Positions 304 through 4,813 of a stretch of 50,335 bases of DNA are shown here, piece by piece (position 1 is the first letter of the stretch; each line of letters starts with the position of its first letter). The position numbers and the translations under genes are program-made. A model generated the notes under the pieces. It worked only from the letters and a program-made list of their open reading frames with translations, did not search any database and was not told where the DNA came from. Where the stretch lies: IMG/VR virus record IMGVR_UViG_3300046171_000048, positions 1 to 50,335 of that record; one strand, 5' to 3'. This DNA comes from a virus (taxonomy: Duplodnaviria > Caudoviricetes).

Positions 304-331
304 ATTATACCAGTCCACAGCGTTTTGTCAA
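304..331 (-). promoter_or_regulatory. sigma70-type promoter, leftward
   Basis: Minus strand reads TTGACA-aaacgctgtggactgg(16)-TATAAT. Confidence 0.8.
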
Positions 332-433: not shown

Positions 434-461
434 TTGACAAGATGCTGTAGGCCGGTATAAT
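434..461 (+). promoter_or_regulatory. sigma70-type promoter for the rightward arm
   Basis: TTGACA-agatgctgtaggccgg(16)-TATAAT upstream of ORF 526. Confidence 0.85.
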
Positions 462-723: not shown

Positions 724-1043
724 TCCCTAAAAAACCTTTATACAAAGTATATAAGACTAATTATGAAACAGGGGAGTTCTACATAGGTGTTACCTCCAAG
801 TCAGGGGTACACTTTGATAATTATTTTGGCTCTAATACTACTGATTTAAAGATTATTGATAAAGATGTTTTGTTTATCAGCCACAATAAGTCTGATGCAA
901 AGCTTATGGAGTTAATATATCAGCTTCAAAACTTCTATGAAAAGAAATGTTTGAATAAAATGCTGAATATTAGACTGAGAAGAGATTTTATAAAAAAGAT
1001 TCCTAAATTTAAGATAAAAATAAATGGCATATCTAAATCATAA
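707..1043 (+). CDS. small GIY-YIG-like nuclease (start probably lost to a 1-nt indel near 726)
   Basis: Not in the ORF track. Open frame 699-1043 reads YKVYKTNYETGEFYIGVTSK...YFGS...E...CLNKMLNIR; GTG at 707 joins if one C of CCC is removed. Confidence 0.6.
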
Positions 1044-1662
1044 CCTACCACCCTTTAGTGCCTACATTAGAAATGAATATTTATTCGACCATGAAAAGGG
1101 TCATGGTGAATATACGTTTGCTGATGTACACACAGTAAACAGTTTAGAAAGAAGAGCCTTATTATTTGAATGTTTATTACCTAATGGAGTAAACTGGACA
1201 CGAAGACCTATCCATGCTTTCTGTTGGAAGAAAGATGCACCGAAACATAATTTAAATATACACCAATACTGGGATTGTTTTTCACCTTACGTGGATGTAC
1301 AAAGAAGAAATAGATTAGCGAACTGTAGAGCAGAACTTGTAGACTATAAAGGTGTTAAAAGAAAAGGCACTTACATGTTTACGATAGACTGGGCATGGGA
1401 AAATAAAGCAGGGATGTTAGATACAAACTTTAGTGAAGACCCAGAACACAAATGTGCTCATATGTTTAGAATGGATGATGGTAACTTTTTTGCATACCCT
1501 AATAATAGAACCATTTGGTATGATGATGCCTATATGGATAAAAGACTAACAGAAAATCCGGGATATAAGATAGACCAAAACTTTTATACAGTAGAAAATA
1601 CTAGAGAAGAAGATACGACAACTGATGATTCCTACATGACTCAGTTTGAACGTCCTGAGTGA
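1024..1662 (+). CDS. conserved marine-phage hypothetical protein
   Basis: 212 aa; MAYLN.NLP..IRNEYL..H..GHGE, WDCFS, HKCAH, YPNNR motifs typical of a widespread phage family. Confidence 0.8.
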   Translation: MAYLNHNLPPFSAYIRNEYLFDHEKGHGEYTFADVHTVNSLERRALLFECLLPNGVNWTRRPIHAFCWKKDAPKHNLNIHQYWDCFSPYVDVQRRNRLANCRAELVDYKGVKRKGTYMFTIDWAWENKAGMLDTNFSEDPEHKCAHMFRMDDGNFFAYPNNRTIWYDDAYMDKRLTENPGYKIDQNFYTVENTREEDTTTDDSYMTQFERPE

Positions 1663-2414
1663 AATTATTCTTTGACCACATTACAGGTAAACTAACTAAC
1701 TACGATTTAATTTACTCTCTACCCCTAGCAGAGTTTGAAAATAGTGAATATGATTATGCTTTTGAAAACGGATGGATTCCTTTATCATGGTATTACACAG
1801 AATTAAAAAACTTAACTTGGATAAATGCTAGGAACACAAGATTAGTTTTAAATAAAGTAGAGTTTAGTAAAAAACAAAAGTATGTTCTTCGTAAAAAAGA
1901 TATTAAAGTTAAAATATTAAATAGTTTTGATTATGATTTATTATCCACAATATATAAAAAATATGTTAAGTATAGAAATTTTTATGAAGAAGGTTTTGAA
2001 AATGACAGTGAAGTATTTGAAAAGAAAGATTATATAGATTGGAAATATTTTATTTACTATTACAAAGATACTCCAGTAGCTTTTACAGAGTTTAAAGTTT
2101 TTGATAACAAGCATGTACTATCAGGACAGTTTGCATGGGATTATGAAAATCCAAAACTAGGATTAGGAACATATGCAACACTTTACGAAATTGATTGGTC
2201 ATATAAAAATAAATATAAAAATTATTACTTGTCTTATGGTTATGAAACAACTAGTAAATATAAATCTAAGTATAAAGGTTTTGAATTTTGGAATGGCAAA
2301 GAATGGGTAAACAATAAAACTTTGTATAATAAATTATGTGATAATGATTCTAGCATAGAATCTATAAAAGATTTAAATAAATACCAAAGAGAATATTTTA
2401 AATTAAATGGCTAA
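1659..2414 (+). CDS. arginyl-/leucyl-tRNA-protein transferase-like protein (ATE/Bpt, GNAT-like fold)
   Basis: R.....FSKKQKYVL, IYKKY...R, WDYENPKLGLGTYATLYEI, YYLSYGY....KYKSKY..FEFW...W parallel Bpt/ATE_C motifs; GTGA overlap with upstream gene. Confidence 0.7.
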   Translation: MKLFFDHITGKLTNYDLIYSLPLAEFENSEYDYAFENGWIPLSWYYTELKNLTWINARNTRLVLNKVEFSKKQKYVLRKKDIKVKILNSFDYDLLSTIYKKYVKYRNFYEEGFENDSEVFEKKDYIDWKYFIYYYKDTPVAFTEFKVFDNKHVLSGQFAWDYENPKLGLGTYATLYEIDWSYKNKYKNYYLSYGYETTSKYKSKYKGFEFWNGKEWVNNKTLYNKLCDNDSSIESIKDLNKYQREYFKLNG

Positions 2415-2547
2415 ACGACCAACAGAAAGTACAGGGATAATTCATATTCCTAAAAGAACTAGTATAGGAAATGGCAAAGTTAAAATGTCTTCTATGAATA
2501 AACATAAACGTAGAAGTTATAAAAAATATAATAAACAAGGTAAATAA
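2407..2547 (+). CDS. small basic protein (46 aa)
   Basis: MAKRPTESTGIIHIPKRTSIGNGKVKMSSMNKHKRRSYKKYNKQGK; overlaps both neighbours (TAATG junction). Confidence 0.7.
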   Translation: MAKRPTESTGIIHIPKRTSIGNGKVKMSSMNKHKRRSYKKYNKQGK

Positions 2548-2846
2548 TGAAAGACCCTAAAGTAGGAACAGGTAAAAAACCAAAAGGTTCAGGAAGAAGA
2601 TTATATACAGATGAAAATCCTAGAGACACAGTGGGAATTAAATACGCCACGACTGCGGATGCGAAGAATACTGTTCGTAAAGTCCGCAAGATTAATAAGC
2701 CGTATGCTAGGAAAGTTCAGATTCTTACTGTTATGGAACAACGAAGTAAGTTTGGTGGTAAACCGCAACAAGCAGCAATAGCAAAGAGAGCAAAAATACA
2801 ATTAAAGAAAAAACATGGCACTAGCAAAATCTCAAAGAAGTCTTAA
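2547..2846 (+). CDS. small basic phage protein
   Basis: DPKVGTGKKPKGSGRRLYTDENP.DTV.IK motif common in marine phages. Confidence 0.75.
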   Translation: MKDPKVGTGKKPKGSGRRLYTDENPRDTVGIKYATTADAKNTVRKVRKINKPYARKVQILTVMEQRSKFGGKPQQAAIAKRAKIQLKKKHGTSKISKKS

Positions 2847-3063
2847 ATCATGGTCAAAACAAAAGTGGCGAACCAAGTCTGGGAAGCCGTCTTCCAAGAC
2901 AGGAGAAAGGTATCTACCAGAGAAAGCCATCAAGAGCCTGACATCTGCGGAATATGCGGCCACGACAAAAGCAAAGCGCCAAGGAACAAAGCAGGGCAAA
3001 CAGTTTGTGAAGCAACCGAAAAGCATTGCAAAAAAAACTAGAGCATACAGGAGGGTATCATAA
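2815..3063 (+). CDS. small basic protein, C-terminal half of DUF5872-like family
   Basis: SQRSLKSWSKQKWRTKSGKPS..TGERYLP.KAI..L...EYAAT motif. Confidence 0.75.
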   Translation: MALAKSQRSLKSWSKQKWRTKSGKPSSKTGERYLPEKAIKSLTSAEYAATTKAKRQGTKQGKQFVKQPKSIAKKTRAYRRVS

Positions 3064-3164
3064 TGATTGATAAGGTATGGAGTAAATGGACTGGTCTTAA
3101 AAAGAATGTTAAGATTGGTATCATTATAGTAGCAATAGTAGTAATTTACTGGTTTATAAAATGA
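3063..3164 (+). CDS. 33-aa single-TM micropeptide
   Basis: MIDKVWSKWTGLKKNVKIGIIIVAIVVIYWFIK; TAATG and ATGA overlaps on both sides. Confidence 0.6.
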   Translation: MIDKVWSKWTGLKKNVKIGIIIVAIVVIYWFIK

Positions 3165-3325
3165 ACAATAATAAAATGAAATTTAATGGTAAGTCCGATA
3201 ATCGAAACAATCGGACTGCCACATTTAATATGCAAAAAGCTGACCTAGATAAAGATGGTAAGATATCATCTTATGAAAAAACTAGAGGTATGGCTATTCA
3301 AAAAGCAATGAAAGGTAAAGTATAA
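3161..3325 (+). CDS. 54-aa protein with single EF-hand-like loop
   Basis: DLDKDGKISSYE fits DxDxDGxIxxxE; overlapping stop/start junctions. Confidence 0.65.
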   Translation: MNNNKMKFNGKSDNRNNRTATFNMQKADLDKDGKISSYEKTRGMAIQKAMKGKV

Positions 3326-3858
3326 TGCAAGGTAGAACAAGAAGAGGCGTCAGCGTAAGCAATAAGTATAGTGGGTCAAAAGCAAGCCCTAATCAATTAC
3401 AAAGAAATAAAAGTAATAAACCAAAAGCAAGTCCTAATCAATTACAAAAAAATAAAAGTAATAAACCAAAAGCAAGTCCTAATCAATTACAAAGAAATAA
3501 CTTTAATAAAGGTTTAAAAAAGAATAAAGGTTTAGATAAATTTTTTGATGAAAAAAAATTTAGAGTTGGACCAATAACACCTAAACCTAATAAACCTACG
3601 CCTAAAACTGGCGGAAGTCCAAATCAAAAATTAAAAGAAGAAAAAAGAAAGAATATTAATAGACCCGGAAAAAATGATAATAAAACACCTACTGGTGTCA
3701 ATAGACCGGGTACAAATAGTAAAAAACCAAAATCTAAAATAACATCATTAACAACAGATTATATTAAACAAAATTTAAGATTTGGTCCTATACTAGGGCC
3801 TTCCTTTTTTTTAACAAAAAATTTGTATGAACAATATTTAAAAAAGAAAAAAGCATAA
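3325..3858 (+). CDS. Lys/Asn/Pro-rich low-complexity protein with internal repeats
   Basis: 177 aa, three KASPNQLQ(R/K)N repeats. Confidence 0.7.
   Translation: MQGRTRRGVSVSNKYSGSKASPNQLQRNKSNKPKASPNQLQKNKSNKPKASPNQLQRNNFNKGLKKNKGLDKFFDEKKFRVGPITPKPNKPTPKTGGSPNQKLKEEKRKNINRPGKNDNKTPTGVNRPGTNSKKPKSKITSLTTDYIKQNLRFGPILGPSFFLTKNLYEQYLKKKKA
3377..3500 (+). repeat. 45-nt coding tandem repeat (about 2.7 copies)
   Basis: caaaagcaag(c/t)cctaatcaattacaaa at 3377, 3422 and 3467. Confidence 0.9.
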
Positions 3859-3980
3859 TGGCATACGGAAGTAAAACAAAAAAACCAAAAGATAAAACAG
3901 TAGTAATGATTGCTGTAGGGAAACTAAAGGCTAAAAAAAATGGCACTAAGCGAAACGGAAAAAAGAAAAAACTTTCTTAA
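3858..3980 (+). CDS. small basic protein (40 aa)
   Basis: MAYGSKTKKPKDKTVVMIAVGKLKAKKNGTKRNGKKKKLS; TAATG overlap. Confidence 0.55.
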   Translation: MAYGSKTKKPKDKTVVMIAVGKLKAKKNGTKRNGKKKKLS

Positions 3981-4278
3981 AAAACATGGACTTAAAAGAT
4001 TCAATACTGCAGTCAGGACCACTGAAGGTGGTAAGAAAGGTAAAGTCGGTATACTCGAGGGTGGGAAGCCCCGACTTATTCGCTTCGGTGACTCTTCTAT
4101 GGGTCACAACTATTCCCCAGAAGCTAGGAAATCTTTTAAAGCTAGGCATGGGAAAAATATTGCAAAAGGTCCAACGAGTGCTGCGTACTGGGCTAACAAA
4201 GTTTTATGGGCAGGTAAGTCGGGTTCGAAGAAGTCTCCGCCAAAAAGCCAACGTGTTGTTAAAGGAGCCAGAGGTTAA
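3940..4278 (+). CDS. small basic phage protein
   Basis: RLIRFGD..M......ARKSFKARH...SAAYWANKVLW motif widespread in phages and giant viruses. Confidence 0.75.
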   Translation: MALSETEKRKNFLKKHGLKRFNTAVRTTEGGKKGKVGILEGGKPRLIRFGDSSMGHNYSPEARKSFKARHGKNIAKGPTSAAYWANKVLWAGKSGSKKSPPKSQRVVKGARG

Positions 4279-4358
4279 ACTATCTGGCAATGTTTTTAAA
4301 GCAAACAAAAACGAAGAAACAGTAACACAAATAAAGTTTAAAGAAAATTAAAAAGTTT

Positions 4359-4408: not shown

Positions 4409-4813
4409 ATGACTTTTACACTAGATAAATACATGCCCTACACAGTAGGGTTTGATAGATTCTTTGATACATTAGATATTGTAAGTAATACTGATGCCAA
4501 AGGATATCCACACTACAACATTAAAAAGATAGATGATGGAGAATGGAAAATAGATTTTGCACTAGCAGGGTTTTCTAAAAAAGATATTAACATAAATGTT
4601 AAAGAAAACAAAATGACTGTTGATGGCGAAATAGAATCAAACAATGAAGATTATCTGTACAAAGGTATTTCTACTAAAAAGTTTTCTAAGACTTTTTCAC
4701 TAGCAGAATATACAGAACCAACAGATGCAACTATGGAAAATGGTATTTTGACAATTACTTTAAAACAAGAATTGCCAGAAGAAAAAAAACCAAAGACAAT
4801 AAAAATAAAATAG
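4409..4813 (+). CDS. hsp20: small heat-shock protein (Hsp20/IbpA family)
   Basis: VGFDRFFD, YPHYNI, ALAGFSK.DI, YLYKGIS...F...F.LAE, A.MENGIL.I.L....PEEKKPKTI.I; strong SD. Confidence 0.95.
   Translation: MTFTLDKYMPYTVGFDRFFDTLDIVSNTDAKGYPHYNIKKIDDGEWKIDFALAGFSKKDININVKENKMTVDGEIESNNEDYLYKGISTKKFSKTFSLAEYTEPTDATMENGILTITLKQELPEEKKPKTIKIK

Follow-up and report, generated by a model that had tools for sequence, protein, structure and literature searches.

A divergent ATE1/Bpt-like transferase gene adjoins phrog_3704 in the genome of a marine HMO-2011-type podophage

The window analyzed in this study (the whole 50,335-nucleotide stretch of IMG/VR virus record IMGVR_UViG_3300046171_000048; Duplodnaviria, Caudoviricetes) carries near its left end two overlapping genes, the first encoding a protein of the phage family phrog_3704 and the second an enzyme related to ATE1 and Bpt. 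ATE1, Bpt, and Aat are known enzymes that move amino acids from charged tRNAs to protein ends, marking them for degradation. The features of the pair are as follows:

1024..1662, plus strand: phrog_3704 protein, 212 amino acids, ATG start; conserved neighbor of the enzyme in the window clade
1659..1662, plus strand: GTGA overlap seen in the sequence, joining the TGA stop of the upstream gene to the GTG start of the downstream gene; consistent with translational coupling
1659..2414, plus strand: ATE/Bpt-like aminoacyl-tRNA-dependent transferase, 251 amino acids, GTG start; assigned from profiles, fold, and residues
Enzyme residues 1-65, approximately: N-terminal domain, without the Cys site and without the acceptor Arg
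Enzyme GNAT-like core: S155, W160-D161, G170, E177, Y201-K202, F208-E209, and W216

Both open reading frames (ORFs), their GTGA overlap, and the order of the transferase motifs in ORF 1659-2414 (FSKKQKYVL, IYKKY, WDY..LGLGT..L.EI, and YLSYGY..YK..Y..FE...W) were found as claimed in the preliminary description of this DNA, made from the letters alone, and the single cysteine that it placed near the C-terminus is C227. Close spacing or overlap of the two genes is also present in relatives. Moreover, the GTG start is supported by the N-terminus (M/V/L-K-[LI]-[FY]-F-D-H) conserved among homologues of the enzyme.

Family profiles and structural modeling identify the product of ORF 1659-2414 as a true homologue of the ATE1/Bpt aminoacyl-tRNA-protein transferases, in line with the initial assignment. 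Indeed, the alignment of 60 phage-clade family members matched that of 26 cellular bacterial Bpt/ATE homologues in hhalign with a probability of 99.6% (E 1.1e-24, 193 columns). At E<=0.01, the Pfam family ATE_C matched 49 of these 60 diverse members and ATE_N none; LPG_synthase_C matched one member and Acetyltransf_6 four, and no Pfam match to Aat or FemAB was found among the 60. A profile search of the PDB with the window enzyme alone reached ATE1 at E 0.066 only. The AlphaFold2 model built from the family alignment was of high quality (predicted local distance difference test, pLDDT, 94.7; predicted template modeling score, pTM, 0.90), and its top Foldseek matches in the PDB were the human, yeast, and Kluyveromyces lactis ATE1 structures (E 8.5e-10; query TM-score, TMq, 0.60-0.62), among them human 8tzv (E 8.5e-10, TMq 0.60) and K. 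lactis 7wg2 (TMq 0.62). Aminoacyl-phosphatidylglycerol (aa-PG) synthases and MprF, leucyl/phenylalanyl (L/F)-transferase, and FemX followed at about 1e-5 to 1e-6. In this context, the structure search that the preliminary description had named as a check returned ATE1 first, with the basic helix kept, and not the acyl-CoA GNAT that it had regarded as fatal to the assignment.

Residue counts given here compare the 60 phage-clade members with the 26 cellular homologues, and positions were mapped through alignments to ScAte1, hhalign, and the mutational data on klAte1 (K. lactis Ate1) in PMC9351520. Lys202, equivalent to the catalytic Lys304 of klAte1, is conserved in 60/60 members, and the klAte1 K304A mutant is inactive (PMC9351520). 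The aromatic residue preceding it (Y201, equivalent to klAte1 Tyr303) is Tyr in 51 and Trp in seven members. Glu177, corresponding to Glu277 in the acidic donor pocket of klAte1, is kept by 53 of the 60; an acidic charge at this position is required for Arg transfer by klAte1, and the residue is Gln in the Leu-transferring Bpt (PMC9351520). S155, equivalent to klAte1 Ser255, is Ser in 36 members and Thr in seven, whereas R61 (equivalent to Sc R101) and R58 are both invariant (60/60). Furthermore, the basic residues K71, K72, K74, R78, K79, and K80 lie on or just past helix 71-77 of the model, and family columns 71-79, which are mostly Lys or Arg, align with the S-K-S-Q-R-R stretch of Bpt; K71-K80 is thus a putative tRNA-binding basic helix, equivalent to alpha-3 of ATE1.

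The acceptor side of the enzyme is where the phage clade departs from its cellular homologues. Three aligned Cys columns are occupied in the phage clade by N/K/E, by Trp (58/60), and by Ala/Ser, so the absence of the Cys cluster, to which the preliminary description drew attention, is real. It is not special, however: each of the four Cys columns of the metal site lacks Cys in 8/26 cellular homologues, which means that Cys-less forms exist outside phages and that the loss of Cys does not by itself set the phage clade apart. A more informative difference lies at the position following the conserved G-W, where Arg is present in 26/26 cellular homologues, those lacking Cys included, and in 0/60 phage-clade members (Leu in 25, Ile in 15, Ala in six, and other residues in 14). 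This position corresponds to klAte1 Arg80, which reads N-terminal Asp/Glu and is essential for acidic substrates (PMC9351520).

Compared with bacterial Bpt (PF04376 plus PF04377, PRK01305 models, about 220-260 amino acids), the phage enzyme is alike in size and domain order, and the two have in common the motifs G-W, R-x-R-[IV], a basic S-K-S-Q-R-type helix, W-D, L-G, E-I, Y-Y-L-G-Y, Y-K, and F-E...W. Unlike Bpt, the phage enzyme shows no ATE_N match, has replaced Cys columns and lost the Arg after G-W, and carries new invariant Trp54 and Arg58 residues together with the conserved N-terminus M-K-[IL]-F-F-D-H; its genes lie on viral contigs and not in cellular genomes, and it scores far below curated cut-offs. 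Eukaryotic ATE1 (8tzv, 7tif, 7wg2), the best fold match, is only 12-15% identical, and the phage enzyme has equivalents of klAte1 Lys304/Tyr303, Glu277, Ser255, Trp260, and the basic alpha-3 helix, but is half the size of ATE1 and without its C-terminal extension, its zinc or Fe-S site, and the Arg80 equivalent. With aa-PG synthases, the MprF C-terminal domain, the L/F-transferase Aat, and FemX, it shares the fold class and the logic of the catalytic Lys, although these are weaker fold matches (2e-6 to 1e-5 vs. 8.5e-10) with essentially no Pfam match.

The enzyme clade is a large, divergent branch of ATE1/Bpt whose carriers are nearly all viral, comprising hundreds of IMG/VR contigs of marine and other metagenomic origin and four contigs from metagenome bins. 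When 1.84 billion representative sequences were searched exhaustively with a profile, 248 clusters were retrieved at E<=1e-3; at 1e-10 there were 111 and at 1e-30 there were 23, with the canonical Cys-bearing Bpt entering only near 1e-7. Four scans of IMG/VR, which overlap in content, yielded:

Scan 1: 151 pattern-matching stretches, 131 confirmed relatives
Scan 2: at least 600 pattern-matching stretches, at least 557 confirmed relatives
Scan 3: 284 pattern-matching stretches, 278 confirmed relatives
Scan 4: 595 pattern-matching stretches, 515 confirmed relatives

Among 185,579 prokaryotic species, represented by one genome each and searched with a single peptide pattern, eight loci were found, all on contigs of metagenome-assembled genomes (MAGs). 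A full-length enzyme match was present at six of the eight; L081, L083, and L084 belong to enzyme clusters that also contain viral contigs, L085 and L087 are placed among the canonical cellular proteins, and L082 had been missed by the gene caller. Searches with tblastn of 50,697 GenBank phage records, using the window enzyme and a distant member (P0275), gave no match, PHROGs held no family matching the enzyme, and BFVD contributed one close fragment only, an uncharacterized protein of 143 amino acids. Literature searches found no report of a phage-encoded ATE/Bpt member. One 221-kb IMG/VR contig, estimated to be 100% complete, carries two enzyme copies about 150 kb apart (L091 and L101), 95% and 76% identical to P0275.

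Linkage to phrog_3704 was assessed in 312 pooled loci (some contigs being present twice), 307 of which have an enzyme ORF, grouped into 44 clusters at 60% identity. In the window clade, phrog_3704 lies directly upstream in 77/80 loci, the remaining three leaving no room for it, and adjoins the enzyme in all 116 loci with a called upstream gene; at L035, only neighbor residues 1-136 align. Adjacency extends to 6/44 enzyme clusters, namely the window clade and clusters 4 (14/14 loci), 18 (2/2), 28, 29, and 32. The enzymes of these further clusters, cluster 4 included, are only 33-38% identical to that of the window. In four cluster 4 loci, the neighbor precedes the enzyme in the same orientation and overlaps it by 1 nt; in the other ten, it follows the enzyme, is convergent with it, and overlaps it by 34 nt. 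In clusters 28, 29, and 32, a neighbor only 24-29% identical to that of the window lies immediately beside the enzyme (gap -4 to +3) and remains recognizable as phrog_3704 (5e-34 and 8e-38), with two of the contigs measuring 137 kb and 347 kb. Except for the related clusters 28 and 29, the pair-bearing backgrounds have no other flanking family in common. Since the pairing is conserved across divergent genes, in two gene orders, and with unshared flanks, it represents more than inherited synteny. Lineage-specific synteny had been suggested by the absence of the neighbor from 80 distant-clade and six MAG loci (0/80 and 0/6), and was dropped after the five further clusters and the two gene orders came to light. 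The coupling to a conserved gene put forward in the preliminary description is consequently real, and its proposed survey of co-occurrence in relatives bears this out in six clusters, but the remaining 38 are without phrog_3704 within 8 kb.

Other enzyme clades have other fixed neighbors immediately beside the enzyme, listed below with representatives from loci L089-L252:

Family A: 164 amino acids, or 402 in a long form; 11 clusters; unannotated, with the C-terminal half of the long form matching phrog_36119 (unknown function); L182:4862-5353 and L210:8662-9867
Family B: about 169 amino acids; seven clusters; weak DUF6875 match, and phrog_28122 (unknown function); L246:5295-5801, opposite strand
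Family s65: about 65 amino acids; five clusters; no annotation; L108:3927-4124
No common neighbor: 15 clusters

By hhalign, the four partner families are not detectably related to one another (probabilities <=0.4%, against 100% for the short and long forms of family A), and no functional annotation was found for any of them. On a FastTree phylogeny of the enzymes, the neighbor label requires 13 changes, compared with a mean of 40.3 after shuffling, and 0/200 shuffles were as low; because relatives share labels, this denotes clade-wise fixation and not co-evolution. Additionally, a gene for a classical GNAT acetyltransferase (Acetyltransf_1, E 1.5e-9; L177:7583-8038 and relatives) adjoins the ATE-like gene in five clusters, being directly upstream of it in 7/8 loci.

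The upstream protein, presented as unknown in the preliminary description, belongs to a widespread known family, although no function is supported for it. It matches phrog_3704 end to end (E 2.9e-54), and 112 GenBank phage records, the majority from cyanophages and pelagiphages, contain homologues, which are named PurM, ferredoxin, or hypothetical protein; the records so labeled are of the same family as the window protein, and two enzyme queries matched none of the 112. Papers on cyanophage genomes have attached the name purM to phrog_3704 since at least 2010, and those consulted here carry it forward only as a label. Neither identity is supported, since the protein has no AIRS/AIRS_C or ferredoxin match in Pfam or NCBIfam and no such PDB sequence or fold match. 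Its AlphaFold model is all-beta with a pLDDT of 68, and Foldseek retrieved nothing with that model at E<=0.001. In a PDB profile search nothing was significant, the one weak stretch (E 0.065) being residues 144-171 against the Q-x-D-x-N-x-V-x-Y repeat of the bulb-type mannose-binding lectin 1xd5. A search of the ESM Atlas gave no usable match. An Nt-amidase-like role, considered by analogy with the eukaryotic pathway, likewise found no Pfam or fold support.

Taken together, we propose that ORF 1659-2414 encodes a catalytically competent transferase with a rebuilt acceptor site, acting with or on the phrog_3704 protein, a reading that we favor with modest confidence. In this mechanism, the basic helix would hold a host aminoacyl-tRNA by its 3' end, and the aminoacyl group would pass to an amine on the acceptor, with Lys202 stabilizing the intermediate in the manner of ATE1 and FemX. 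The donor amino acid would be basic, most likely Arg, as suggested by the acidic Glu177 in the donor pocket. The acceptor site appears to have been rebuilt, with the metal-binding Cys replaced (Trp54 for one of them), the acceptor Arg changed to Leu or Ile in 40/60 members, and Arg58 and Trp54 as new residues; because that Arg is never kept and the site is remodeled, the acceptor is probably not a classical acidic N-terminus. In the window clade, the enzyme may act with or on the phrog_3704 protein, which would be its substrate or a specificity factor.

Several observations weigh against this proposal. On the enzyme side, the window protein itself falls just below the 25-bit cut-off of ATE_C (22.3 bits, E 2.1e-4) and far below that of the NCBIfam arginyltransferase model NF002342 (40.1 bits vs. 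205, E 3.1e-10). The choice of donor depends on a single pocket residue, and Glu is also found at that position in 17/26 cellular homologues, so that the donor is proposed by analogy with ATE1 only. Regarding the neighbor, 38/44 enzyme clusters have no phrog_3704 within 8 kb, and L259, inside a phrog_3704-linked clade, is without it. When five large viral genomes with the enzyme were searched over their full length (two being at least 90% complete), phrog_3704 was found in 0/5, by a model for which HTVC033P serves as a positive control, the same model having found the gene there. The label-clustering test is inflated by shared ancestry. Moreover, neighbors within the window clade are 93-99% identical where the enzymes are 64-93% identical; the enzyme is thus the faster-evolving partner, a pattern unlike that of a tightly co-evolving complex. 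A complex prediction from the enzyme and phrog_3704 alignments, which scored 0.00 with the partner's own fold uncertain and no controls, weighs neither for nor against the proposal.

The likeliest alternative, to which we assign an appreciable minority share of the probability, is the following: the adjacency would be meaningless, the enzyme acting alone on host targets, and phrog_3704 would be a frequent insertion site or hitch-hiker in marine phages. The very different rates of divergence of the two genes and the other neighbors of other enzyme clades agree with this, and phrog_3704 is far commoner than the enzyme, occurring without it in the 112 GenBank records and lying elsewhere (gp43) in the genome of HTVC033P, the closest cultured relative, from which the enzyme is absent. 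On the other hand, a meaningless adjacency sits poorly with a pairing that persists at about 30% identity of both genes, that survives an inverted relative orientation and unrelated backgrounds of about 10 to 347 kb, and that has its counterpart in each major enzyme clade keeping its own fixed neighbor.

A classical N-degron enzyme, which would arginylate or leucylate N-terminal Asp/Glu and feed the host ClpS-ClpAP, with the neighbor incidental, would fit the clear ATE/Bpt lineage, the catalytic Lys, the basic helix, and the ATE1-like acidic donor pocket; some sources annotate homologues automatically as arginyl-tRNA-protein N-Asp/Glu arginylyltransferase, and an Hsp20 gene 2 kb downstream hints at a proteostasis theme. 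We consider this improbable and the classical role not supported, since the Arg that is invariant in the cellular homologues and essential for acidic substrates of klAte1 is missing from all 60 phage-clade members, none of which matches ATE_N at E<=0.01; as judged from the aligned residues, this loss makes an Asp/Glu acceptor unlikely. Slightly less probable still is transfer to a non-protein acceptor, such as a lipid, a cell-wall precursor, a nucleotide, or a small molecule, which the neighbor might make or carry. The remodeled acceptor-side domain and the significant fold matches to aa-PG synthases, MprF, and FemX are compatible with such chemistry, as are the few LPG_synthase_C and Acetyltransf_6 hits, but the E-value of the ATE1 fold match is better by three to four orders of magnitude, most members match the Pfam family ATE_C, and the enzyme is without a membrane domain, while the neighbors match no known biosynthetic family. 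Finally, a non-catalytic, toxin-like tRNA binder that would sequester or discharge aminoacyl-tRNAs and stop host translation, with the neighbor regulating or neutralizing it in the manner of GNAT toxin-antitoxin pairs, is very unlikely: small overlapping two-gene modules with unrelated clade-specific partners and a predicted GNAT-like fold that may bind aminoacyl-tRNA recall such pairs, but the invariant catalytic Lys and the ATE-type pocket point to transfer chemistry, the partners match no known antitoxin fold, and in a lytic podophage genome a translation block would harm the phage too.

Returning to the transferase with a rebuilt acceptor site, a bolder form of the proposal, which we regard as tentative, is that of a phage transferase family in which each clade is bound to a small partner protein of its own, phrog_3704 here and three unrelated families elsewhere, and places a non-canonical aminoacyl mark either on that partner or on a host protein chosen by it. 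If true, this would be an undescribed tRNA-dependent post-translational modification system for host takeover or counter-defense, located in a marine phage group that ranks among the most abundant. The clade deserves attention for being common on viral contigs with its catalytic machinery kept, the classical substrate residue lost, and partner genes specific to each clade. Should the enzyme prove active, phages would be using host aminoacyl-tRNAs beyond translation, and the pair would offer a tractable two-gene system for a new acceptor specificity, as well as a first way into the function of phrog_3704, which is common in marine phages.

Regarding the genome itself, the window has an estimated CheckV completeness of 93% and a GC content of 29-38% (2-kb windows), and no tRNA genes were found in it. 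Its large terminase is 67.5% identical to the counterpart in Pelagibacter phage HTVC033P and 45-54% identical to those of HMO-2011-type roseophages and a SAR116 phage; based on these terminase identities, the window is an HMO-2011-type podophage, probably infecting SAR11. The HTVC033P subgroup is reported to be among the most abundant of the HMO-2011-type group (PMC9038755).

Two promoter-like sites were found by pattern match only:

304-331, minus strand: perfect sigma-70 consensus (12/12)
434..461, plus strand: perfect sigma-70 consensus (12/12; TTGACA-16-TATAAT), upstream of the rightward gene string that includes the pair

Both sites diverge where the leftward gene set gives way to the rightward one, and could form a divergent promoter region. 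A pattern search between 300 and 3300 found no terminator-like sites. Both genes of the pair are represented among contigs of marine RNA libraries, and the gene junction is bridged in three libraries from three studies (X1, records 6 and 7; X3, record 9; X6, record 12), which lends slight support, since contigs cannot prove a transcript and DNA carry-over is possible; parts of the stretch without cover in X3, X5, and X6 carry no meaning, as contigs show presence only.

Downstream of the pair by 2 kb, a small heat-shock gene (HSP20; 4409-4813, plus strand; Pfam E 5.7e-19, above cut-off) directly precedes the terminase genes. Small, very basic Lys-rich ORFs without a significant Pfam family flank the pair on the plus strand (526-723 and 2407-4351), and one ORF, 3325-3858, contains three tandem copies of a peptide of about 15 residues (K-A-S-P-N-Q-L-Q-[RK]-N-K-S-N-K-P).

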